Source of the DNA: Eledone cirrhosa
Taxonomy: Eukaryota
NCBI GenBank assembly: GCA_964016885.1
Contig: OZ024742.1
Coordinates: 94,178,001-94,242,000 of the forward strand
DNA length: 64,000 nucleotides
Direction: 5' to 3'
The notes under the pieces are model-generated. The model ran no database searches. It was not told the DNA's origin and was given only the letters and a program-made list of their open reading frames with translations. Every line of letters begins with the position of its first letter. Position 1 is the first letter of the stretch. Of the stretch, positions 23,046 to 58,862 are shown one piece after another. A program made the translations under genes and the position numbers.

Positions 23046-23789
23046 GGACAAGGATAACTTCCTATTAATTAATGGCTAGTATATCCCTCTGCCCATCAAT
23101 GGGAATACATACACACACACATAATACTCACACATGCACACACACATACACACACACATATATACATATGCAGACTCAAACACATATGTTATATACATAC
23201 ACACACATATACACATAGGTATACACAAACACACATTACATACATATACATTCAAGCAAACACATGTACATAAACATATATGCATGCATATATACACATA
23301 CAGACACAAACACACATACCACACATTACACATACACACACACACCATACACGAATACACATACACACACAGAGACACAAACACACATACCCTGCCATAC
23401 GCATGCACACACTCACCATAGATACTTACATAAATGTGTATACAAATACACATACATATTCAAACACACACATTTACCAGCTGCCTCTTAGATTTAGAAA
23501 TGAAGACATTTGAAAGCCGACAAAAAGATCAGATTAAATGAAATTACTTGTAAAACTTTTAAAATGTTCGAATTATAAAAATTAAAACATATATTAATAA
23601 ATACTGAAATATAAAACAATAAATTATAAAAAAAAGGATTTAAAAAAATGGCAATTAAATTAAGAAAGATAAGAAACAGTTAACAATTTTTCTTGGTATT
23701 TTTTACTAGAAGAGTAAGAAAGGCCAGCCTGAAATCAGTACTCAACACATTGAAGACACCATGATAAAATACTCTCTGTACACTTTGTA

Positions 23790-24945
23790 AAGTGACAGTG
23801 CTGGTGTCATAATAAAATGCACCCAGCACATTCTGTAAAGTGCTAGACCTGGTGTCATAATAAAATGCACCCAGTACCTTCTGTAAAGTGCTAGAGCTGG
23901 TGTCATAATAAAATGCACCCAGTACCTTCTGTAAAGTGCTAGAGCTGGTGTCATAATAAAATGCACCCAGTACCTTCTGTAAAGTGCTAGAGCTGGTGTC
24001 ATAATAAAATGCACCCAGCACATTCTGTAAAGTGCTACAGCTGGTGTCATAATAAAATGCACCCAGCACATTCTGTAAAGTGCTAGAGCTGGTGTCATGT
24101 TAAAATGCACCCAGCACATTCTGTAAAGTGCTAGACCTGGTGTTATAATAAAATGCACCCAGCACATTCTGTAAAGTGCTACAGCTGGTGTCATAATAAA
24201 ATGCACCCAGCACATTCTGTAAAGTGCTAGAGCTGGTGTCATGTTAAAATGCACTCAGCACATTCTGTAAAGTGCTACAGCTGGTGTCATAATAAAATGC
24301 ACCCAGCACATTCTGTAAAGTGCTAGAGCTGGTGTCATGTTAAAATGCACCCAGCACATTCTGTAAAGTGCTAGACCTGGTGTTATAATAAAATGCACCC
24401 AGCACATTCTGTAAAGTGCTAGACCTGGTGTCATAATAAAATGCACCCAGCACATTCTGTAAAGTGCTAGACCTGGTGTCATGTTAAAATGCACCCAGTA
24501 CCTTCTGTAAAGTGCTAGACCTGGTGTTATAATAAAATGCACCCAGCACATTCTGTAAAGTGCTAGAGCTGGTATCATAATAAAATGCACCCAGTACATT
24601 CTGTAAAGTGCTAGAGCTGGTGTCATAATAAAATGCACCCAGCACATTCTGTAAACTGCTAGACCTGGTGTCATAATAAAATACACCCAGCACATTCTGT
24701 AAAGTGCTAGACCTGGTGTCATGTTAAAATGCACCCAGTACCTTCTGTAAAGTGCTAGACCTGGTGTCATAATAAAATGCATCCAGTACCTTCTGTAAAG
24801 TGCTAGAGCTGGTGTCATAATAAAATGCACCCAGCACATTCTGTAAAGTGCTAGAGCTGGTGTCATAATAAAATGTATCCAGCACATTCTGTAAAGTGCT
24901 AGACCTGATGTTATAATAAAATACACACAGAACAATCTGTAAAGT
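23790..24945. repeat. 48-bp tandem array, ~24 copies
   Basis: Unit GCTGGTGTCATAATAAAATGCACCCAGCACATTCTGTAAAGTGCTAGA; 16-aa periodicity in the ORF track. Confidence 0.95.
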
Positions 24946-26305
24946 GGTTGGCATATACTGACTCTAACTGTAGAAATCATGCCAAAATATGGAATGTATG
25001 AGCAAGATGTGGTCTATCTGACCTACTTAGACTCTGACCATCAGAACCTGTATAACCCTTGAAAACATGGAAAGGGGACAGAGAATAATGATGATGATGA
25101 CAATGATGATTTAACTTTTCTAGAGACTCCATTGTTTCTTCCTAACCCAGAGTTGATCACAGTGTTAGTATTATTGTAATGGACCTCAGTTACTTTTAAC
25201 AATGGCTGTTTCAGTTTTTCAATCAACAGAACATGTTCATGACAATAACATATAAGTGGTTGACAATTCCACAGACCCATGTAACCTTAACATAATTCAC
25301 AAGGAAATTCAACTTAACATAATTCACAAGGAAATTCAACTTAACATAATGTGTGACAAGGTTGACCATTTGAATTACAGATACAGTCTATCCAATGGGC
25401 TTCTAAATAGTTTCTGTCTATCAAATTTCACCCACATATAATGGGTCATCACCATTACCATCATCGGTTTTACGTCTGTTTTTCCATGCTTGCTGGGCTG
25501 GACAGGTCCATTTCAACCCAGCATCTCTCCATACGCTGTGTTCCTACATCATCTTCTATGTCAGTCCTACCAATTTGAGATCAGTTCTCACCATCTCCAC
25601 CCATGTCTTCTTTGGTCTAACTCTACTACAGGTTCCTTCCACTGGGATTTCCTGGCACTTCTTCAGCATGTTAAAATAAATGACATGCTGGTGAATTGAA
25701 CCTGGGACCTAATACGTAATTATAAAGCACACTCCTTAACAATTTGTCCATGCTGTGGTCATATTTATTTAATACATATGTAAAATAAATATCCCTGTGG
25801 CCAACTATGGGTTAGTGAGAAATATTCTTTGTAAGTGTTGAATAATATTAATAAAATACAGGAAGCAGTTAATAATATATTTGACAAAAAAGTGAACGTA
25901 CTTCTCATGAATTGTTGATTAAACGGTGTCTTTAGCAGGGAAAAAGGGTAGAAAAACTTATATATATATACATATGTATTTGTGTGTGTCTCTGAGTGTA
26001 CATGTATATACGTAAAATGATGATGATGATATATCAAAATCGTTGCATTATGTCAAACAGAATTTTGTGTTGTATGGAGTATGCATGTATGTTTGTATAT
26101 ATGTAAATAGATGTGTGTGTGTGTGTGTGTGTATCGATATAGATATCAAATGCATGTGTACATGTGTGTGTGTGTGTGTGTGTGTGTGCATATATAAACA
26201 TTGACACGCACACACATAATTCTGTACGTATTTATCTATCATCAATATCTAGAAATGTATAATTATGTTGCTGTTTGTATGCTCACTCATAGGCATATGA
26301 TGATG

Positions 26306-28965: not shown

Positions 28966-31900
28966 TTACAGATACGTACTCAGAGTAGGCCCATTCACTC
29001 GGGCCATTATTGCTTCTCTCACCCATCTTTCAACAAAGTGCTGGGAAGAGGGCACTTCCCTCTCTACCCTGATTTTCCTTTTCAAATGAAATTTGAAAAA
29101 GTTAATCAGGGCTTCACCGAAGAGGTAAGTGCTCGACTTCAGCCCTTTCAACCGTGTCCACCATACTATCTCTTTCGCCATGGCCACCAGACAGATAAAA
29201 ACTGCCTGCCCTTCCCGGCTAAAGGAAGAGGGCGGGGCAATCCTCACGATGTACCCAGCTGATAGCCGGATCCGTCCTACACGCGACAGCAGGTGTTCGA
29301 CATAAACCCACAAGTCAGCAATTTTCGGACACTGGACGAGTGCCTGCAGGACGGTTTCGTCGCCCTGCGCGCATCACGGACATGCCTGGCTGACGGCACC
29401 TCCATGCCTGTAGAGTTTATCCCGAACTGGCAAGGCTCCTCGGTAGCACTGCCGGGCCAGAGATTTCTGGAAGTTGTCCATAGGTCACGGCCCGAAAGTT
29501 CTTCCGAAGAGATTGGCTAGTTGATTTTCGTCGACGCCTAGAATTTCCCCAAGTACGTCGTCGCTCTTCCCGTCCACTAATCCTCTATAGAACGCCTAGG
29601 TGGAGTTTCAACCGATCACATTGCCCGATTGGTCGAGGGCTGTGAGCGCCTGAAGACATTCCAGTCTCCAGGCGCTCCCTCTTGGTCTTCGCTTGACCCA
29701 GGACTGCAGCTCCGTCAAGGAAACGAGCTGGGGAAATACGTGTCTAGCAAACGGCGACCACACCTGATCACCGTCGAGGAAGAGGTGGAGATGTCGTAGC
29801 CTGAGCGCGTGTCTGCGCATCATCAGCCACGCCAAGCCCAGCCCTCCACGTAGCGGGTGTTGACAGCAGATGGACCGCCTGACCATCGGAGCGCGTCCCT
29901 TCCACAAAAAGCGAAAGAGCAAACGCTCCAGCGCAGTCAGGCGGGGCTTAGGACAAGGTACGACGGTCAGGCGGTAGCAGATGACAGACGCGATGTACGC
30001 GTTAGCCACCTCCGCTCGACATTTCGGGGATAGCTTCCTCTCCGCCCATTTCTGGGTGAGAGAAGCCACCCTGATCGTCACCTCGTCCCAGTTTTTGTCC
30101 GTCTGGAGGTCCGGACCGAACCAGACCCCTAGCAATTTAACCGCACCGTCCGTCCAGCGTCCGACGACGCTGTTGGACGGCATGGACCTGCCTCTCCAGG
30201 TGCCGAGCTGCAGGCCCACTGACTTTTCCTGGTTGATCATTGTTCCTGTCACCGCTTCGTATTCCCTTAGTGTAGTGCCGATCGCCTCGACGTGTTTGGC
30301 GTTCAACACCACTACGGTGATATAGTCCGCATATACTGACACGGATCTTCCGCATCCTAGTTCGTGCGGGACGCCCCTCAACGTCTCCAGTTTGTGCAGT
30401 AATGGCTCGAGAGTCAATACGTACAAGAGGGACGAGAGGGGATATCCTTGGCGGACCGAGCGCATGATGTTGAACGGTTCCGACAGGTGACCGTTCACTC
30501 TCACCACAGAGCAGATGTCGCTGTGCATGGCAGCGATCCAGCCTCTGAGGACGGGCCGAAAGCCAGCCGCCCTCAGGACTGCCGCTAGGTAACGATGGTC
30601 GACCCTATCGAAAGCTTTCGACTGATCTAAATTGATCAAGGACCCACCGGTGCCAGGTTTCCTAGCTACCCTCTCTACGATGTATCACATGAGGTGGAGG
30701 TTGTCGTGGATGGATCTGTCGGGAATGGCGCATGTCTGCGCCTCTCCCACCAGACCACCAACGACAAGCGCCAACCTCTTTGCTAGCACCTTGGCCAAAA
30801 TCTTGAACTCTATGTTTAGCAGAGTTATGGGCCTGAAATTATCTATGTTATCCCCCTTGTTCGGATCCTTTCTCAGCAGTGCCACCGCTCCTCGGCTCAC
30901 AGATCTGGGAATTCTCCCGTTCTGTTGCGAGTTGCAGTAGACGTCCGCCAAGAGGCCTCCGAACAAGTCTGGCATCTGTACGTAAAGTTCATAGGGTAGA
31001 CCATCCAAACCAGGCGATTTACCCCTTGTGCAGCTAGTCATTGCCTCCCGTACTTCAGCGGCTGTTATCGGCTTTACGCAAAACTCCGCCTCAGTGGCCG
31101 AGAGCCGCGGCAGTCCGTCGAGGTAGACACAAAAGTCCATCCCTCGACCCGGCCCACTGCTGCCCCCGAACAGCTGAGCGAAGTGTCGCTGAAAAGCTTC
31201 ACATATTTGCCCGGGATCGACCAGCATGCGCCCGTCGTGGTCAACCAAAGACCGGATCGTGGCTTTGTTGCCACGGCGCACCTCCGACACTCGGGCCCAT
31301 TGAACGGCTTTCGTCCCCTCGTGTCTGAGAGCACGCAACTTAGCTCTGACAACGCAGCCTTCATGCTTTGCATTGAAGAATTGGTCAAGGGCCAATTTCG
31401 CCGCAAGTACGTCGGTCGCGATGCCTTTGCTAAGCGCCTCGTCTAATTTTCTAACTAATTCTCCCTCTATTCTATTTTTCTCTATTGCTAAAGCCTTACT
31501 AAACCTAATGGACTCTATTCTAATTGCTCTTTTCAGAGCAAACCACCACTTGTTGCTGACGATGGCCCCCGTCAACGCCCGCTTAACTAGCTCGCTAATC
31601 CGGTCTCTGTATGCCTTGCGCGCTGGTAAGGACGCGTTCAGCTTCCAGTAGCCGGGTCCTCGTCTATGAAGCCTATCTAAGTCAAGCACACAGATCACGA
31701 ATTTGTGGTCCGTGTAGCTGACTATCTTGAATTGTGGACAGCCTATGCTAGACCTATCTATTTCCCTACAAAATACTCTATCTAGATATGATCTGGATGA
31801 CCCTATGCGATTTGTCCAAGTCCACATTGGCACATTCGGGAAATCCAATCGGTACCTGTCAGACAGTTCGTAGCCGCCGAAGATCGGTGCGAAGGCCCGT

Positions 31901-32034
31901 GCTTGGGAGATTCTGGTCTCGCTGATGGCCACTATATCTATGTTTAGTGACCTGAGGTCGTTGATCAGGTGACCCTGCTTTCATGACGACCCCAAGCCAC
32001 GCGCATTTATGCTGGCTATTCTGAGTGAGGTCAT
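28966..32034 (-). pseudogene. Tx1 ORF2 (APE-RT-CCHC), disrupted
   Basis: 'MTSLRIASINARGL', 'ISET', 'SYLDRVF', 'YTDH', 'GYWKLN', 'KSPGLDGLP', 'NFRPITLLN', 'LDQSKAFDRVDH', 'VRQG.PLS', and YADY in place of YADD; early stop and frameshifts. Confidence 0.9.
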
Positions 32035-32141
32035 GTTTAAAATAGAGTGGAAAAGATGGGAAAGACCACTTACCGTACTTTTCGTAGAGGAAGGATGGTT
32101 TCTCCATCCCTTTTCACTTGATCGTCTGTTGAAGGGACCGT

Positions 32142-34235
32142 TCAATCGTCCCTTCGGCTGGTCGTCGGCTCTTCTATGAGTATGTCCGAATATACTCTCC
32201 GGTTAAGAGTCCCTCCTAGGTCTCTAAAATCACCAACTGCGTTGGGGAATTTCGTTTTAATGTTTGTGTATTGTTTCTGTGCTATTTTTAGCAGTCTTAT
32301 GTTAGTTGGCGTTTTGATTGGTGCTGGTATTATGTAGTCGTGCTGTGAAATGTCTGTGTGTTCAATTATGTAAGTCATTAGTTTCTTGTTGTGTGTATTT
32401 ATTGCCGTGCATTTGTTTGTCTGGGGGTGGGGTGTGGTTCTGCTATTTTCTTGTTGTTGCTGGGTGTGTGTGTTTTGTTGTTGTGTTTGCGATGTTGGTG
32501 CTTGTGGTGGTGGTGTTGAAGGTGTTGTTGTTGTTGGCGGTGGGGTTTTCGCCGGTGGTGATGGTGGTACTAGTGTGGGTGGTGATGGTGTTGGTGGTGT
32601 TGCTACTGTGAGTCTCTTTGCAGTAGCCTTTACCCTTTTTTCATTTCTTTCCTCCCCTTTCGAAGGCGACGATGCGCTGCTTCTGCGTTTGTGCCTTCTT
32701 ACGACGTTTTGCCATCCCTCTCCCACCTCACACTCCATGTCTGATTCTGTGAGGTCGGGGAGGGGTACCAGCTCCACTCTTTCACTTGTTGTTGTTGGTG
32801 ATGTTTGCAGCGGAGTCTCTGTTGCAGCTGCATTTGGTATTACTGTTGTTGTTGTTAATACTTCCACTGCTGCTGCTGTTCTTGATTTCGGTGGCGTGGG
32901 TATGGGTGCCACGGACCTATCGTTCCTGGTTGCCGCTTGTCCTGTTGCTGGTAGCCGTGGAGCCGGTTTCGGAAGGAAGGGGGTTTTCTCCTTTCTCAGG
33001 GTTTCTCGTTGCAGAAGGCCCTGAGGTGAGTCTTCGATCCACAACGAAAACATTTCGAGCGTTTGCCCTCAACACTTATGGGCAGTTGAGTGCCGTAATC
33101 GAAGTCTATCACATCCGGGATAGCTTTGATGCACTCCTGGTTGATTTTGATTAACATCTCAATGGAGGTGCCGACCCAATCTTCTCTTATTCTTTTCTGT
33201 ACTTGCAGTACAGTTGTTTTGTCCTCGATTCCTACGAGAACAGACGCGGCCAGCCAAGAAGGGGCCATCTCGGGGAGGGGAGGGGGGGGGAGGACGTGGG
33301 TCAGTTTGACCCTCTCAATTTTTTGCCCGCAGTAGGAGGGCACCAACACCATTTCCTCGCTCCTTAGGGTCACTAAGGATTGAGCCTTTGCCTCCTGGGG
33401 TGTGGCAAAAAGCACGTCTACGGTGGCATATTTCTTGCCTCGGGTGATGTGCGTTTTCCGCTGCCACACAGACCCTTAGGCTTTTTGTATTTGAGCCTCT
33501 GTGGCTCTTTCAACCCTACGGGATTTTGTGCTTACTGTACGGTTCGTGACCGTACAGTGCTGTTGGGTTTCGAAAAATTTTTCGGCTGCCTTGCAGATTG
33601 CTCGGTGTCCGGTTTTCGTCGCCATCTTCTTCGCTTCCTCTAATTCCTTATTTGTTATGAGGATGGTTTTCAGGTTCTTTGCGATACCTGCAAACGAGAT
33701 GGGTTTTTCTTTGCTGCTGTTGTTGTTGTTGTTGTTGTTGTCGTCAGAGCTGCTGTTACTTTTGTTGTTGCTGCAGGTACTACGACAACTGCCGCCACCG
33801 CTGTTGCTGTGGTTGTTGTTGTTGTTGTTGCTGCTGCTGCTGTTGTTGTTGCTGTTGCTGCTAATGCTGTTGTTGTTTATGCTGCTGCTGATGCTGTTGC
33901 GGCTGCTACTGTTGTTTTCCTTGTCACAGTTGCTGCTGCTGCTGTTATTACGGCTGCTACTGCTATTATTCATGACGTCAGACGAATGAAATGGGTTTTT
34001 GTATTTTCCGCACACCTCTTTCGTCGTTGTCGTCGTCCTCGTGGAGAAATCTTGCACGCTTTGCACGAGACTTTTCTATTCTGTCGTCACTTGCGAACGA
34101 GAATGCGGGGGGGGGGGGAGACACATTTAAAGAAGGGAGGGAGAGAGACAATCTTCTCTCTGCTGTAGTGATGATTGAGGAAGAAGAAGACGGAATGAGT
34201 GGGAGTAACCTATGAAAATTCTTTTTCGTAGCCAG
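32142..34235 (-). pseudogene. Tx1 ORF1 (gag-like, zinc knuckle), disrupted
   Basis: Pieces 33476..34066, 32996..33469 ('CFRCGSKTHLRAFC') and 32142..33053. The likely start is CTG at 34235 here but ATG at 28466 in the derivative. Confidence 0.75.
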
Positions 34236-34539: not shown

Positions 34540-37500
34540 AAGTCAGACATTCGAACACTACATTACAATGAAACTTATGCTTATTCATCTCTGGGGCCCT
34601 TTCTGCCTGTGTGTTTGTTTGTTTATGTGTGTTCGTATACAGCGTGGTGATAATGCCACACAAGGGCCAAGTGGAATGGCGGATCCACAGATGGCTATGT
34701 AAACATACATTCGCCAATCCTCGATAAGAGTGTTTAAATATCGAACATAAACAGTTCGAATAACGGTGAAATGGAGACTAGAACGTCATGTGACAGACTC
34801 TCACCCAACAGGTGCCCCCTGGCTCAGCAGCAGGAACCTGACTGTCAACCAAATACTGCTGATGTTGGAGGAAGGAGAAGAAGGAAAGGGGCCAGAACCA
34901 ACTGGACGAAAGAATTGAATAGAACTGTTATGCAATGCTACCTGAAAAGTAACCCCAAGGAGAGGGGCTACAGGAGACGGATGCATAACATCTGGAACGA
35001 GATTGGTTTATTTAAATTAGATGAACAAAAATTGGCCGGGCAGGCTCGGGTAATAAGAACTAATGGGTGGATAAGCGAGCTGGAACTGGAGGAACTGAGC
35101 AGAGAGAATGGCTTGGAGATGGCGGGTGTAGTATGCCAGACAAGCGAGCCGGTGGGAAATGAAGGTGAGGAGGTCCTGAGAACGGAGGAACCACCCGAAG
35201 CAGACAATGATCTGAGTACTGAGATAAATAATACCTGGAACAGAGATACGGCCACTGAGGAGATGAATGCTGACGGGCTAGGACAAGATTCGGTTGACAT
35301 CCTAAATTTAGTGGTAGATGAATTGAACAATGATAGTGGGAGACCTATGAACCTAAGATTTGTAGACAGGAAAAAGTTAAAAGAAACAACAGCTAAGGTA
35401 AACAAAGTCATCCCATACCTTGAGGCGAGGAGCCTTCACCAGTGCAACAATATCCTCAGAGCAACAGCAAATACGGTGAGGAAACTACTTGGTATAAAAG
35501 CGAGAGGAAACAACAGACAAGAAAGAGCAGAGCCGTGGTGGAAGAAGCGACTGAGTGGGCAAATCGGGGAAATGAGAAATGACATAGGAAAGCTTGAGTC
35601 ACTACTGAATGGGACACTAAAAAACATAGGCACTAAAAATAGACTGGAAATAAAATACAAAACTAGGAGTAAAAAGCTAAATATTATCATAGAGGAATTG
35701 AAGCAACGCATTGTAGCAAAGAGTGCAAAAATCAGGCGATACGAGAACAGAGTCAGTCAGTATAAACAGAACCGCATGTTCGACAACAACCAGAAGATGC
35801 TGTTTGGACAGCTTGAGGGCAAGGAAAGAGGCAACGACTTGATCCCTGGGGCGGAGCAAACTAAAACATTCTGGAGAGGAATATGGGAGCAGGATGTTAG
35901 ACACAATGCCCAGGCAGGGTGGATTGAGACAGTACAGAGGGAGATTGGTGAGCAGGCACAGCAACAGACTGATTTGAGTATCACAGTTGAAACTCTTAAG
36001 GGGCAAGCCAAAAAACTAACCAACTGGAAATCACCAGGCCCAGATGGTGTGCAGGGGTATTGGATTAAACATCTAACATCCCTCCACCCGAAGCTGACGG
36101 CCATGTTCAATGACTGCTTGGTGTCGGGTGAGGTGCCAGAGTGGTTGACAAAAGGTACCACAGTTCTGATAATGAAAGACCGAATCAAGGGTAATGATGC
36201 TACCAACTATAGACCTATCACATGTCTGCCCGTAATGTGGAAACTGTTGACGAGCATTGTGTCTGAGGAAATCTACCATCACCTCCACACAAACAACTTG
36301 TTACCGGACGAACAGAAAGGATGCCGAAAGAAGTCACGTGGTACAAAGGACCAGTTGCTTATTGATAAGATGGTAATGGGGAATTGCAGGAGGAGACACA
36401 CTGATCTTGCCATGGGATGGATAGACTACAGAAAGGCATTTGACATGGTGCCTCATTCCTGGATCACCAAAAGCCTGGAGATCTTCAGGGTGGCAGATAA
36501 CATCAGACAGTTGCTAGGCAGGAGTATGGGGTCCTGGGAGACAGAGTTGACATCAACTGGAGTATCCTTGGGAAGCGTGAAGATCAAGAGAGGTATCTTC
36601 CAGGGAGATAGCCTGTCCCCTCTGCTGTTTGTCCTTGCCCAGATGCCCTTGACCATTATGCTGCGAAAAGTGAGAGCAGGATACAAGTTGGGAAGGGGAG
36701 AGCTTACCATCAATCACCTCCTCTTCATGGACGATCTTAAGCTCTTCGGGAAAAGTGAGAAGGAGTTGGATGTGCTTGTTGACACTGTCCGTATTTTCAG
36801 CAGTGATATATGTATGCAGTTTGGTATTGGTAAATGTGGAGTCATTGTGATGAAGAGGGGTAGGTTGAGCAGAAGTAACGGGATCCAGATACCAACAGGT
36901 GAGATGATAAAGGAAATTGACTCTGAGGAAGGATACAAGTATTTGGGCGTTCTGGAGGCTGATGGCATAAAGAACAAAAAAAAGAAGGAATTGTTAAGAA
37001 CTGAATACATTCGGAGAGTAAGGAGCGTATTGAAGTCACATCTGAACAGCAGAAATGCCATAAGCGCAGTAAATTCCCGAGCTGTGTCTATTATTAGGTA
37101 CAGTGCGGGAATTCTGAGATGGAATGTTGCTGAACAGAAAGAAATGGATAGGAAGACTAGGAAGCTATTGACTATCTACAACATGTTCCACAAGAGGAGT
37201 GATGTCGATAGACTCTACCTAAGGAGATCTGAGGGTGGAAGAGGTCTTATCAGCATAGAGGACTGTGTTCAGATGGAGAAAAACAACCTATACAAATACG
37301 TGACCTATAGTAAGGAGTCAATGCTCAGAGCTGTACTGAAGGAGGGGACAGTAGGCCAGGGGATGTCCAGGGAGGAAATAACATCAAGGAGGAAGAGCAG
37401 CCTTAAGGGAAAACCCCTTCATAGTACCTTCTTTGAGAAAACTGAATTTAGAGATCCACAGACATGGAACTGGTTGAGAAGAGGAGACCTCAAAAAGGCT

Positions 37501-38237
37501 ACAGAAGGAATGCTAATGGCTGCGCAGGAGCAGGCCCTCAAAACGAAGTGGTTGAAGCACCATATCTACAAGGAGGAGGCCAGCCCACTGTGCAGGATCT
37601 GTGGAGAGAGAGAGGAGACTGTGGCTCACATTGTGTCCGAGTGTAAACACCTAGCCCAAACCCACTATAAGGGCTGGAGACACGATGTGATGGGCAGGGT
37701 GATCCACTGGCACCTGTGCAAAGTAAACAATCTACCACATTCTGAGAAATGGTATGAGCATAGGCCAGAGGCGGTGATGGAGAACAATCAGGTGAAGGTG
37801 CTGTGGAATTTTAGGATACAGACGGACAAAAAACTGGAACACAATAGACCTGACCTGGTGGTTGTGGACAAAGAAAAAAGATCGTGCCTGATTGTGGATG
37901 TGGCCTGCCCGTTCGACACGAGAGTGCAAGAGAAGGAGAGGGAGAAAATTAACCGATACCAGGACCTAAAGTGGGAGGTGAAAAGGATTTGGAACTGCCA
38001 TGAAGTCAAAGTGATCCCGATTGTCATAGGTGCACTGGGGACTATCTCCAAAAGTTTCCAGGGATGGTTAAAGAAAATCGGCCCCTTCACGCTTTTTGGA
38101 ACGCTTCAAAAGGCATGCTTGCTTGGAACAGCAAGAACCCTCCGATACGTCCTGAATATCTGAGGCTGCAGGTAGTGGCTTGATATTCAATCCAACGGAC
38201 TTTCCAGTTAACCAACATCAATGACTGAGATTCAAGG
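34540..38237 (+). mobile_element. Apparently full-length R4/Dong-clade LINE in (AAT)n
   Basis: Single long ORF with short UTRs, (AAT)n on both sides. Dong elements are known to target TAA repeats. Confidence 0.92.
34771..38163 (+). CDS. Intact 1130-aa retrotransposon protein: RT, CCHC knuckle, restriction-like endonuclease
   Basis: 'WKSPGPDG', 'NYRPITCLP', 'WIDYRKAFD', 'GIFQGDSLSPLLF', 'LFMDDLK', 'YKYLG', 'CRICGEREETVAHIVSEC', 'RPDLVVVD..VDVACP..EK..RY'. Confidence 0.95.
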   Translation: METRTSCDRLSPNRCPLAQQQEPDCQPNTADVGGRRRRKGARTNWTKELNRTVMQCYLKSNPKERGYRRRMHNIWNEIGLFKLDEQKLAGQARVIRTNGWISELELEELSRENGLEMAGVVCQTSEPVGNEGEEVLRTEEPPEADNDLSTEINNTWNRDTATEEMNADGLGQDSVDILNLVVDELNNDSGRPMNLRFVDRKKLKETTAKVNKVIPYLEARSLHQCNNILRATANTVRKLLGIKARGNNRQERAEPWWKKRLSGQIGEMRNDIGKLESLLNGTLKNIGTKNRLEIKYKTRSKKLNIIIEELKQRIVAKSAKIRRYENRVSQYKQNRMFDNNQKMLFGQLEGKERGNDLIPGAEQTKTFWRGIWEQDVRHNAQAGWIETVQREIGEQAQQQTDLSITVETLKGQAKKLTNWKSPGPDGVQGYWIKHLTSLHPKLTAMFNDCLVSGEVPEWLTKGTTVLIMKDRIKGNDATNYRPITCLPVMWKLLTSIVSEEIYHHLHTNNLLPDEQKGCRKKSRGTKDQLLIDKMVMGNCRRRHTDLAMGWIDYRKAFDMVPHSWITKSLEIFRVADNIRQLLGRSMGSWETELTSTGVSLGSVKIKRGIFQGDSLSPLLFVLAQMPLTIMLRKVRAGYKLGRGELTINHLLFMDDLKLFGKSEKELDVLVDTVRIFSSDICMQFGIGKCGVIVMKRGRLSRSNGIQIPTGEMIKEIDSEEGYKYLGVLEADGIKNKKKKELLRTEYIRRVRSVLKSHLNSRNAISAVNSRAVSIIRYSAGILRWNVAEQKEMDRKTRKLLTIYNMFHKRSDVDRLYLRRSEGGRGLISIEDCVQMEKNNLYKYVTYSKESMLRAVLKEGTVGQGMSREEITSRRKSSLKGKPLHSTFFEKTEFRDPQTWNWLRRGDLKKATEGMLMAAQEQALKTKWLKHHIYKEEASPLCRICGEREETVAHIVSECKHLAQTHYKGWRHDVMGRVIHWHLCKVNNLPHSEKWYEHRPEAVMENNQVKVLWNFRIQTDKKLEHNRPDLVVVDKEKRSCLIVDVACPFDTRVQEKEREKINRYQDLKWEVKRIWNCHEVKVIPIVIGALGTISKSFQGWLKKIGPFTLFGTLQKACLLGTARTLRYVLNI

Positions 38238-48279: not shown

Positions 48280-50468
48280 CTGCTATTCCTAGAACACCTA
48301 AGGAACACTATGAGGTTCCCTCTATTTAGCTGCTATTTCTACCATACCAATAGACCACCATGAGGTGCCCCCTTTTTAGCCTATGTAGCTGCTATTTCAA
48401 GAACATCTATGGACCACCATGAAGTTTCCCCTTATTTAGCTGCTATTTCGAGCATAACTATGGACCACTATAAAGTTCCCTCATTAGCTGCTATTTCTAG
48501 CACACCTATGGAACACCATAAGGTTCCTATTATTTTTGATGATGTGGCTGCTATTTCCAGCACACCTATGGCCTCTATAAGGTTTCCCCAGTTCTTGCTG
48601 ATGTAGCTGCTATTTCCCCTGTTTAGCTGTTGCAACTGCTATATCTTGCACACCTATAGCCCACCATGACTTTACCGATTTAGCTACTATGTCTAGCACA
48701 CATATAGACTACAATGTGGCTCCCTGTTTAGCTGCCATTTGTATGACATCTAAGGACCAGCATGAAGTTTGCACCTATTTAGCTGCTATATCTAGCACAC
48801 ATACGGACCACCCTGAGGTTTCCCTATTTAGCTGTTATTTTTAGTACACCTATGGATCACTGTGAGGTTCCCCCTATTTAGCTGCTATTTCTAACACACC
48901 TAAGGAGGAAAATGAGGTTCCTCTATTTAGCTGCTATTCCTCCAACACCTGTGAACGACCATGTCATTCTCCCTTTTTATCTGCTATTTCTAGCCCACAT
49001 ATGGATCAGCATGAGGTTTCTCTTGTTTAGCTGGTGTAGCTGCTATTTCTAGCACACCTATGTACCACCATGAGGTTCCCCTGTTTAACCGATGAAGATG
49101 CTATTTCTAGCAAACCTATGTAACACTATGGTGTTGTCCATTTTGAGCTGCTATTTCTCGTACATCTATGGATCACCATTAAAAACACCTTCCATTTAGC
49201 TGCTATTTCTAGTACGCCTATGGCCACCATGAGGTTTCCTTTATTTTGCTGCTATTTCCAGCATACAGAGGCTCCTCCTCCTTTTTCTCATGTAGCTACT
49301 ATGTCCAGCATACCTACGGACCACCATGAGCTTACCCCATTTAGCTGCTATTTCTAGCACACCTATGAAGCAAAATGATGTTCCCCCTATTCAGCTGCTA
49401 TATCTAGCAAACCTTTGGACAACCATGCATTTCCACCTGTTAAGGTGCTGTTTCTAGCACACCTATAGTCCACCATGAAGTCCCCCTGTTTAGCTGATTT
49501 AGCTGCTTTTGTAGCACACCTATGGACCACTATGAAGAAACCCATGTTTAACTGATGTATCTGCAATTTCTAGCACATCTACGGACCACCATGAAGTTTC
49601 CACCTATTTAACTGAAATATCTATCATGCCTGTGGACCTCTATGCGGTCCCCCCTATTTAGCTGCTATTCCTAGCACACCTATGAAGCACCATGTGGTTT
49701 TCCCTGTTTAGCTGTTATTTCTAAAATGCCTATTGAACATCATGAAGTTCCCCCATTTAGTTGATGTAGCTGCTAATTCTAGCCCACCTCTAGTTCTTCA
49801 TATTTAGCTGCTATGTAGAGCATACCTATGGTCCAAGATGATGTTCTGAACATTTAGATGCTGTTTCTAGCACACCTATAGATCTCCATGAGGCCCCCCC
49901 GCCTTTTCAGCTGCTTTTTCTACCAAACCTATGGACCACAGTAAGGTTTTCCTTATTTAGCTGCTATTCCCAGCAAACCTATGGACTGTCATGATATTCT
50001 CTCTATTTAGTTGCTATTTCAAGTATATTTATGGACCACCATGACGTGCTCCTATTTAGCTGCTATTTCTAGCACACCTATGGCCACCATGATATTCTCT
50101 ATATTTAGTTGCTATATCTAGCATATATATAGTCCACCAAGAGGCTCCCCCGTTTAGCTTCTATTTCTAGCACACGTATGGACCACCATGAAGCCCCTCC
50201 TGTTTAACCAATGAAGCTGCTATTTCTAGTACACCTATAGACCATCATGAGGTACCCCCCATTTAACTGAATAAGCTGCTATTTTTAGCACACCTATGAA
50301 CCACCATGAGGTTTCCCCCCATTTAGCTGTTATTTCGAGCATACCTATAGACCAATATAAGCTTCTCCCCATTTAGCTGTTATTTCTAGCACACCTATGA
50401 ACCAGCATGACTTTGCCCCCTATTTAGCTGCTATTTCTAGCACACCTATGGACCACCATAAAGCTCCT
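48280..50468. repeat. Diverged ~50/59-bp tandem array, roughly 40 copies
   Basis: Consensus ATTTAGCTGCTATTTCTAGCACACCTATGGACCACCATGAGGTTCCCCCT; some units carry an extra ~9 bp (GCTGATGTA). Confidence 0.95.
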
Positions 50469-53113: not shown

Positions 53114-53477
53114 TATATGTGTGGATGTATATATTCATAGTTTGTGGTACAGGGACTGGGAAGTCCACAAATTGAATATATATATTTATATATATAAATG
53201 GAATAGAATGAAACGAAATTTCATTTCTCACTCTTCGTACAGCACTTACTTAAATGTAAGTATGTATGTATGTACACGTACATACATATATGTATACAGA
53301 CGTACAGTGGTATGTATATATATACATACATGCACACATATATATATGCACGTATCGGTTTACCGAACATTTATTATAATGCTCGGTTTGTTTGTTTATA
53401 AACTATCAAACAGCCCGAATTACGCCATACAGTGTTTAGGCAACCACGTCACCTTTTTGTTCAACACTGACACAAGA

Positions 53478-53520
53478 ACGATGTACTAGTTTCAAGCTTA
53501 TTACCTATCGTCAGCATCGT
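53478..53520 (-). ncRNA. Type I hammerhead ribozyme, copy A
   Basis: ACGAUG-CUGACGA-UAGGUAAUAAGCUU-GAAAC-UA-GUA-CAUCGU; perfect 6-bp stem I, one mismatch in stem II. Confidence 0.75.
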
Positions 53521-53647
53521 ATACCTTCCAGCCAGATGGTTGAACATCTGAAAGTATATACTTTCCTTATGCATATTAACGGTTGAGCAGCCTAATTTGC
53601 ATATCGAGTGATTATAATAAACAAACCGAGCATTATAATAAATGTTC

Positions 53648-53834
53648 AGGGCGGTGGATTGGCAGTATAGGTAGAGGGTCGGACGCCATGCTTTCCAGCA
53701 TAGTTCTGTCCCTTTACGACCTGAGTTCAAATCCCGCCGAGGTTGACTTTGCCTTTCATCCTTACGGGGTCGATAAAATAAAGTACCAGTAATGCACTGG
53801 GTAACTAGCTGGCCTTGTGCCTAAAGTAGAAACA
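53648..53834 (+). mobile_element. SINE-A inserted into the retrozyme-like unit, 16-bp TSD
   Basis: ATTATAATAAATGTTC at 53632-53647 and 53835-53850; empty sites at ~54283-54310 and, reversed, ~53355-53380. Confidence 0.92.
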
Positions 53835-54142
53835 ATTATAATAAATGTTCGGTAAACCGATACGTGCATATATATATATGTGTGCATGTATGTATATATA
53901 TACATACTACTGTACATCTGTATACATATATGTATGTACGTATACATACATACATACTTACACTTAAGTAAGTGCCGTACCAAGCGTGAGAAATGAAATT
54001 TCGTTTCATTCTATTCCATTTATCGTTTTCGGTGTGACCGGCCGACTGAACTCACTCGATATGCAAATTAGGCTGCTCAGCCGTTAATATGCATAACAAA
54101 AGTGTATACTTTCAGACGTTCAACCATCTTGCAGGTAGGTAT

Positions 54143-54185
54143 ACGATGCTGACGATAGCTAATAGGCTTCAAACTAGTACATCGT
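54143..54185 (+). ncRNA. Type I hammerhead ribozyme, copy B (core GAAA changed to CAAA, probably inactive)
   Basis: ACGAUG-CUGACGA-U-AGC(UAAUAG)GCU-U-CAAAC-UA-GUA-CAUCGU. Confidence 0.7.
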
Positions 54186-54401
54186 TCCTGTGTCAGTGTT
54201 GAACAAAAAGGTGACGTTGTTGCCTAAACATTGTACGGCGTAATTAGGGCTGTTTGTTAGTTTACAAACAAACAAATCGAGCTTTATAATAAATGTTCGG
54301 TAAACCGATAGTGCATATATATATGTGTGCATGTATGTATATATATACATACTACTGCACGTCTGTATACATATATGTATGTACGTATACATACATACAT
54401 A

Positions 54402-54469
<68 letters not shown>

Positions 54470-57598: not shown

Positions 57599-57878
57599 AT
57601 ACATACATACATATATACATACATATACATATACACATATATATAGATATACGGAAAAAATGAAACAAAATTTCATTTCCCACTCTTAGTATGGCTGTTA
57701 CTTAAATATAAGTATGTATACGTACATACATATATGTATACATACGTACAGTAGTATGTATATATATATACATACATGCACACATATATATATGTACGTA
57801 TGGATTCACCAAACATTTATTATAATGCCACAGTGTCTAGCAACCACCGTTGCTCGTTTGTTCAACACTGACAATGGA

Positions 57879-57921
57879 ACGCTCTACTAGTTTCAAGCTT
57901 GTTAGCTATCGTCAGCAACGT
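57879..57921 (-). ncRNA. Type I hammerhead ribozyme, copy C
   Basis: ACGUUG-CUGACGA-U-AGC(UAACAA)GCU-U-GAAAC-UA-GUA-GAGCGU; G.G mismatch next to the cleavage site. Confidence 0.7.
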
Positions 57922-58313
57922 ATACCTTCCTGCCAGATTGTTGAACGTCCGAAAGTATATACTTTCGTTATGCATATTAACGGCTGAGTAGCCCAATTTG
58001 CGTATCGAGTGGGTTAATCGGCCGGGTGCACCGAAAACGATAAACGGAAAAAATGAAACGAAATTTCCTTTCCCACTCTTAGTACGGCTGTTACTTAAAT
58101 ATAAGTATGTATACGTACATACATATATGTATACAGATGTACAGTATGTATACAGTCTGTATACATATATGTATGTACGTATACATACTTATATTTAATT
58201 TCGGTGCACCTGGACGATTAACCCACTCGATATACAAATTGGGTTACTCAGCCGTTAATATGCATAAGGAAAGTATATGCTTTCGGACGTTCAACAATCT
58301 GGCAGGAAGGTAT

Positions 58314-58356
58314 ACGTTGCTGACGATTGCTAACAAGCTTGAAACTAGTACAGCGT
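58314..58356 (+). ncRNA. Type I hammerhead ribozyme, copy D
   Basis: ACGUUG-CUGACGA-UUGC(UAACAA)GCUU-GAAAC-UA-GUA-CAGCGU; stem I extends through GGA/UCC, CUGGCA/UGUCAG and GUUCAACA/UGUUGAAC. Confidence 0.75.
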
Positions 58357-58862
58357 TCCTTTGTCAGTGTTGAACAAACCAGCAACGGTGGTTGCTAGAC
58401 ACTGCGTATGTTTGTTTACAAACACACCGAGCATTATAATAAATGTATGGTTAATCCAAATGTACATATATATATGTGTGCATGTATGTATATATATATA
58501 TATACATACTACTGTACGTCTGTATACATATATGTATGTACGTATACATATATATATATATGTATATACATATATATATACATATATTGAAAATTGCAAA
58601 CTTGACTGTCACCACATATTATGAACCTGAAGAGTGCGAAAGCATGAAAGTACTAGTTCAATTAACACTTAGAATTTAATATTCTATCATACTATTTCAT
58701 TATAATACCATTATAAATTTTAAAGGATTGTAAATAAAACGGTAAATCAGACAAAGTTGGAATTCCTCTTATTAATATAATCTTCTATACACAATCATAC
58801 ACACCCGTGTATATTTATCTATCTATATATATATATATATATACATATATATACATATATAT

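Follow-up and report, generated by a model that had tools for sequence, protein, structure and literature searches.

Metazoan non-LTR retrozymes have been described in coral, mussel and axolotl by Cervera and de la Pena (2020, PMC7229834), who also treated retrozyme circles and their ligation by RtcB. The axolotl hammerhead HHR_Amex2 is active despite a U.U mismatch where helix II meets the core, and its dimer cleaves better than the monomer (PMC7229834). A dimer model for metazoan hammerheads, pairing through helix III, has been put forward (PMC4209133), and in the Schistosoma hammerhead the 5' U of the loop UCCA:GUAC pairs with the 3' A of hexaloop II (PMC2632901). For the cave cricket repeat pDo500, variants with compensatory changes in both stem I and stem II are on record, as is an extension of stem I (PMC2837043); newt satellite 2 was reported to have a looped helix I extension, dimers and an snRNA-type promoter (PMC6155905, PMC2220036). 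A 2026 preprint (10.64898/2026.07.22.740005) proposed that retrozymes originate from Penelope-like elements (PLEs) and found that 8 of 9 Xenopus dimers failed to cleave. Since the class, the architecture and the dimer mechanism are already published, as are compensatory changes in such repeats, the gain from the family described here is a new, unusually rich example. The main text of PMC7229834 makes no mention of octopus or cephalopods, ribozyme terms are absent from the main text of PMC13282606, and a count of 235 Rfam hammerheads is available for giant squid. No octopod description of this ~422-bp family was found in the literature covered.

The window, that is, the whole stretch of DNA analysed, comprises 64,000 nt of Eledone cirrhosa contig OZ024742.1 (94,178,001-94,242,000, forward strand). 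Judged from its sequence, the segment 58289-58375 very likely forms helix I of a type I hammerhead predicted within a non-LTR retrozyme, a non-coding repeat of ~422 bp. Four copies of the family lie in the window as two head-to-head pairs (A/B and C/D):

53194..53611, minus strand: retrozyme arm A, subfamily F1b; terminates 3' in (TA)n, at the +275 site
53840..54406, plus strand: retrozyme arm B, subfamily F1b; C in place of core G12; terminates 3' in (TA)n, at the +217 site
57649..58146, minus strand: retrozyme arm C, subfamily F1a; faces D head to head; terminates 3' in (TA)n, at the +275 site
58199..58560, plus strand: retrozyme arm D, subfamily F1a; internal deletions; 3' end runs into (TA)n

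The hammerhead cores are at 53514 (A, minus), 54148 (B, plus), 57915 (C, minus) and 58320 (D, plus). The ordered core CUGANGA...GAAA...NUH is intact in D, C and A, and GAAA has become CAAA in B. The window copies are thus slightly decayed, with a G.G at the first stem I pair of C and an A to U change in stem II of D in addition to the core change of B. In both head-to-head inserts (53194-54406 and 57649-58560), the arms end in (TA)n, one of them at the +275 site and its partner at +217 or close to it.

Both this family and the non-LTR retrozymes as described in PMC7229834 consist of non-coding, low-GC (35-38%), strongly self-paired tandem units with one type I hammerhead per unit, in a genome that also holds PLEs. 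The U.U at the helix II base is common to HHR_Amex2 and subfamilies F1a-c (PMC7229834), and units of 420-484 nt lie at the top of the reported range of 150-450 (PMC7229834). Unlike those retrozymes, many copies here are two-armed inverted inserts in (TA)n. With the Schistosoma Sm-alpha type (PMC4209133, PMC2632901), the family shares a 6-bp helix I, a 14-nt helix II region ending in a 3' A and a short palindromic helix III, loop 1 being GUAU/UCCU here and GUAC/UCCA there. Unlike the canonical form of that type, F1, F4 and F5 lack the G10.1-C11.1 pair, the triplet is GUA or GUU, and in F5 helix III is longer and not palindromic and the loop is UGA/U. The hammerheads of PLE pLTRs (PMC4209133, PMC8557442, 10.64898/2026.07.22.740005) resemble the family in their type I fold and palindromic helix III, in targeting (TA)n and in occurring as partial tandems and as inverted copies truncated at the 5' end. 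The unit here differs in having no ORF and in carrying the loop 1/loop 2 motif in full instead of in minimal form, and it came with no parent PLE in the loci sampled. Compared with pDo500 and newt satellite 2 as published, there are far more copies and subfamilies in one genome here, together with surviving mismatch intermediates.

The family is very abundant. The pattern CTGANGA-N8-24-GAAACTAGT had 40,666 matches in the genome, against 28 for the reversed control; F5 together with F4 gave 3,887 raw matches, partly double-counted. The units are non-coding, about 420-484 nt long and each equipped with a single type I hammerhead; some are scattered, others arrayed in tandem, with spacings of 418-484 nt. 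In five units the GC content was 0.35-0.38 and 64-69% was paired. One array (G000:C1:5738327-5752443) contains ~32 F2 hammerheads at a spacing of 466-467 nt, with one inverted unit at its end. When 155 F1 copies were followed downstream (8 of 163 were skipped for want of an alignment or sequence), 87 ran into (TA)n within two 10-nt bins counted from the cut site, 48 of them at +210-219 and the other 39 at +270-279. None of the 155 stopped at the next cut site, although copies ending exactly there are under-sampled, since the queries that fetched most loci extended across it.

An octamer, ATGCAAAT, is found 88-100 nt upstream of the core: at -88 in 50/82 F1a, 43/51 F1b and 19/33 F1d copies, and at -100 in 14/19 F2a copies. 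It is present in F4 and F5 too. The newt satellite 2 promoter carries an octamer. In the window, ATGCAAAT occurs at 54061 (plus) and 53595 (minus), and the octamer of arm D at 58232 is mutated to ATACAAAT.

The predicted parts of the hammerhead in copy D are as follows:

58289..58296, plus strand: 5' strand of the outer helix, GUUCAACA; partner UGUUGAAC at 58368-58375
58299..58304, plus strand: 5' strand of the distal helix, CUGGCA; partner UGUCAG at 58362-58367; covaries
58310..58313, plus strand: 5' side of internal loop 1, GUAU; a G58310-C58358 pair is possible, in which case UAU faces U58357
58314..58319, plus strand: 5' strand of helix I, ACGUUG; U58317 is the 5' base of the pair singled out in the original prediction
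58320..58350, plus strand: core CUGACGA, helix II, GAAA and the ACUAGU helix III; cut predicted directly 3' of GUA (A58350); architecture as described in PMC4209133 and PMC7229834
58351..58356, plus strand: 3' strand of helix I, CAGCGU, the first bases past the predicted cut; G58353 pairs with U58317
58357..58360, plus strand: 3' side of internal loop 1, UCCU; the loop II 3' A is predicted to form a reverse-Hoogsteen pair with U58357

The helix I letters are those originally noted (ACGTTG at 58314-58319 and CAGCGT at 58351-58356 in D; ACGATG and CATCGT in A and B), and CTGGCA and TGTCAG are found at the two positions listed. Helix II of copy D has a UAACAA loop and a U.U at its base, and GAAA starts at 58341. 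The segment 58289-58375 had a minimum free energy of -26.3 kcal/mol (z -2.55), which only 1 of 200 shuffles equalled, and its antisense strand reached -19.0 kcal/mol. The fold therefore exceeds chance, and the sense strand folds better than the antisense strand. No Rfam hammerhead model matched 58200-58450 at E<=10, and none matched at the gathering threshold in seven loci. Hammerheads were also absent among the 150 of 194 Rfam matches listed, which were TA-hairpin microRNA artefacts; a match to Rfam is not definitional for a hammerhead. A G10.1-C11.1 pair at the base of helix II is typical of hammerheads, not universal. At this position, U.U is found in F1a-c, C.A in F1d, A.A in F4 and F5, and G-C only in F2, and the subfamilies lacking the pair (F1, F4 and F5) may cleave more slowly.

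Copies A and B and copy D had been noted to differ at one helix I pair, and this single covarying pair had been taken as the sole support for selection on the RNA structure. One pair that differs between two linked master lineages is no test of selection by itself. Covariation was in fact spread over many pairs. The fetched loci gave 324 distinct cores, of which 241 were assigned to eight subfamilies, 53 were other hammerheads or chance cores and 30 remained unclassed. Pair states were compared at 13 helix pairs (six in helix I, three beyond loop 1 and four in helix II), and the majority states were standard in all 104 cells (13 pairs in eight subfamilies). States beyond the first were standard in 18/18 cases, as against 41/145 (28%) private or minority variants (binomial 1e-10); some search patterns fixed certain paired letters, leaving fewer private variants at those positions. 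Without the distant F5, the extra states were standard in 11/11 cases, and within the four close F1 subfamilies, which provide just three testable lineage changes, in 3/3 (p 0.023). Specifically, the pair first noted is U.G, A-U, G.U, U-A or G-C depending on the subfamily, the first pair of helix I is G-C, C-G or A-U, and the fourth is G-C, A-U or U-A. The lineage changes include the transversion swaps G-C/C-G and U-A/A-U, and the majority states on the sense strand comprise 7 G.U and 0 A.C.

Aligned genomic copies led to the same fold. In an alignment of 95 rows (82 distinct, F5 excluded), 97.0% of helix I cells were paired and four of its six pairs showed two-sided change. The helix I covariation score was 0.315, compared with at most 0.099 for slid partners; two of five measures did not stand out from shuffles (146/500 and 222/500), which ignore kinship. 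The RNAalifold check proposed originally recovered, unaided, helix I, three helix II pairs and CUGGC/GUCAG, with two-sided change in 9/14 pairs, and recovered neither loop-flanking register nor the outer helix. Helix I is open-ended and three helices have covariation support, as expected of a type I hammerhead. Because base pairs are kept in eight diverged subfamilies, the fold is very likely real, and the proposed selection on helix I is supported. A hint from one pair has thus become solid comparative support for a very abundant repeat selected as a folded ribozyme RNA.

The history of the pair first noted is probably less direct than a change of both partners from A-U to U.G. Genome-wide, U.G occurs in 7,493, A-U in 2,817, U.U in 250 and A.G in 73 copies, counts that by themselves show linkage only. 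In a midpoint-rooted tree of 91 copies, for which only sequence flanking the ribozyme was used and which had four long branches and numerous open forks, G.U fell at the base and A-U and U.G in separate clades. Several U.U copies lay at the base of the U.G clade and others were nested back-mutants, while the G.U of F1c fell within the A-U clade. Moreover, an old downstream signature was retained in 25/55 G.U, 4/23 U.U, 4/45 A-U and 0/82 U.G copies. Tree and signature together make the routes G.U to U.U to U.G, and G.U to A-U, likely with moderate support, and some U.U copies are likely surviving intermediates. The difference between the copies therefore stands, but both states probably arose from G.U. 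An origin of the U.U and A.G copies as chimeras joined at the cut site is not favoured, because their numbers are unequal and both flanks mostly belong to one subfamily.

The stem I loop had been drawn as a one-sided 6-nt bulge, AGGUAU, followed by GGA/UCC. The letters exist, yet the pairing probability of that register was 0.08, as against 0.85-0.92 for AGG/CCU. The GGA/UCC register gave -22.5 kcal/mol and AGG/CCU around a two-sided loop -25.0 kcal/mol, with 79.5% and 93.1% of aligned cells paired, respectively. The middle GGA/UCC pair is A.C in F1c, F2a, F2b, F4 and F5 (5/8 subfamilies), whereas AGG/CCU is standard in 8/8, with changes on both sides in F5. The bulged register was rejected on these grounds, and the alignment points to a two-sided, Schistosoma-like internal loop (GUAU/UCCU) that fits all eight subfamilies. 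This loop shares 6/8 letters with the Schistosoma loop as published, and helix II and its loop (UAAYAA) span 14 nt. The U at the position of 58357 is present in 80/82 F1a, 51/51 F1b and 22/23 F4 copies; U+7 and the hexaloop 3' A are conserved in F1, F2 and F4, and position -7 is U in F1a/b/d and F4 and A in F2 and half of F1c. A loop 1 5' U, an extrahelical pyrimidine and a loop 2 3' A are all present in the sequence. The stem I loop is thus positioned for docking as had been suggested, and we infer that GUAU/UCCU would dock on loop II. The distant F5 copies (L204, L207 and L208) share the loop 1 geometry and, with their longer helix III, are predicted to be active as monomers. The structure is now fixed for use in cleavage or probing work.

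Helix III and the distal helix also changed in a paired manner. The helix III palindrome ACUAGU is replaced by ACAUGU in F4 (180 matches); the two central bases are swapped and the palindrome is kept (18 rows). A helix III duplex between two ribozymes would contribute about -7 kcal/mol, and the ACUAGU/ACAUGU covariation is as expected if cleavage is dimeric, with two ribozymes pairing at helix III. The distal CUGGCA/UGUCAG helix covaries through G.U/A-U/G-C and U-A/C-G states.

Most probably, helix I of the predicted hammerhead has been kept across eight subfamilies by the copying of self-cutting source RNAs, its pairs likely persisting because only RNAs that fold and cut themselves are copied to new sites. 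The corresponding cycle is modelled on known retrozymes; this genome itself supplies the sequence, copy number, ends and covariation. Tandem copies would be transcribed, and two adjacent hammerheads would pair via the palindromic helix III and cut after GUA, a step that the GUAU/UCCU internal loop would assist when docked on loop II (UAAYAA). Both ends of the freed unit would be kept together by the extended helix I for ligation into a circle, on which a Penelope-like RT/GIY-YIG enzyme, priming at (TA)n DNA on internal UUAU sites, would copy across the junction. Selection would act on the source RNAs, and single-ribozyme arms such as D would likely be dead-end copies, now decaying.

It is possible, though we consider it the lesser probability, that only the core helices serve cleavage and that the distal and outer helices (GUUCAACA/UGUUGAAC) provide only circle closure, stability or compactness, or that the outer one is non-functional. 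The outermost helix is indeed less well supported than the others. Its letters in copy D (GTTCAACA at 58289-58296 and TGTTGAAC at 58368-58375) are as originally given, but the eighth pair is formed in only 26/82 distinct rows and broken in 56/82. Likewise, GTTCAAC/GTTGAAC is kept in copy B as letters, but as a helix it was missed by RNAalifold. Within F1 and F4 its sequence is conserved without clean pairwise covariation; its case consists of this conservation and one wholesale replacement. That replacement, in F2, introduced different complementary strands that themselves vary between U.G and C-G, which, with the covarying CUGGC helix, counts against this reading. Five natural units folded as circles were compact (z -3.7 to -13.2 with 30 shuffles each, values inflated by TA-rich hairpins), and helix I closed the ends in 4/5, the mutated unit L150 not forming it. 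Separate roles for these helices are compatible with the copying of self-cutting source RNAs and do not exclude it.

The remaining explanations compete more directly with such copying. The unit could be just the terminal repeat of a 5'-truncated autonomous PLE that needs the helix, with no independent propagation. Insertion at (TA)n, partial tandem copies and inverted arms truncated at the 5' end are all typical of PLEs, and retrozymes in Xenopus are reported to derive from pLTRs (10.64898/2026.07.22.740005). The genome has Penelope-like ORFs (150 GIY-YIG matches scored; RT and GIY-YIG in 3/5 frames), so that the family co-occurs with autonomous PLEs as retrozymes do. However, in a sample of 30 GIY-YIG loci and 165 hammerhead loci, neither a unit directly downstream of an RT and GIY-YIG ORF nor an autonomous partner sharing its sequence was seen. 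The sole F1 copy in the 30 GIY-YIG loci was antisense to the ORF, and 11 of the 165 hammerhead loci, a non-exhaustive sample, matched PLE proteins, two of them in the same sense, and these only as fragments lacking the endonuclease end. Long ORF-free arrays exist, and the PLEs seen bear other hammerheads, which leaves this origin unlikely. Far less probable is an accident of a few master copies whose linked differences were amplified thousands-fold in the absence of structural selection. The counts of the four pair states would look alike under linkage, and mismatched copies have spread slightly, but per lineage all 18 changes kept pairing, transversion swaps included, as against 28% of private variants, so that this reading is largely refuted. 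We give equally little credence to self-complementarity arising at the DNA or mutation level by inverted repeats, hairpin-templated repair or A-to-I editing. The element does sit in large inverted repeats and has palindromic TA tracts, and F1c has G.U inside the A-U clade. The excess of G.U over A.C is nonetheless strand-specific, the sense strand folds better than the antisense strand, and conservation extends to unpaired bases of the loops and the catalytic core. Editing as the source of G.U was rejected, since private variants had no A>G excess (64/12,800 against 48/11,043 for T>C, p 0.51; 168/189 copies tested).

As a tentative further step, the genome might be regarded as a mutational scan, performed by nature, of a circular-RNA parasite that drives its own transcription. 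Its dated copies, tens of thousands in number, would record which changes to the hammerhead were tolerated by source RNAs. Among these records would be a full compensatory path from G.U through U.U to U.G with the intermediate lineage alive, and a palindrome swap as a mark of in vivo cleavage by dimers. The upstream octamer, retained in every family, would then be comparable to the snRNA-type promoter of newt satellite 2.

A different hammerhead adjoins arm D in the same (TA)n:

58587..58815, plus strand: 3' terminal piece of an autonomous PLE with its own hammerhead, core at 58627

This piece is 98.7% identical over 230 nt to DNA downstream of an RT and GIY-YIG ORF at another locus (L195), whose ORF encodes RT, GIY-YIG and a Cys-rich linker as in Neptune/Nematis. 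The hammerhead at 58627 has the palindromic helix III AGUACU. The A/B locus is interrupted at 53645-53835 by a ~190-bp SINE-like repeat (family D16) with seven more copies; several F4/F5 copies (L182, L183 and L205) carry this repeat too, inserted at one shared ATTAT-rich position. Elsewhere in the window, an open frame of 1141 aa at 34738-38163 (plus) matched RVT_1 (E 2.6e-22), and its C-terminus presumably resembles the restriction-like endonuclease of R4/Dong LINEs. A broken LINE at 29608-33068 (minus; RVT_1 E 5.7e-16), which we take to be L1/Tx1-like, explains the GC-rich block. Additionally, a 48-bp minisatellite (24 copies, 92%) occupies 23786-24946, and a degenerate 50/99-bp array lies at 48636-50456.
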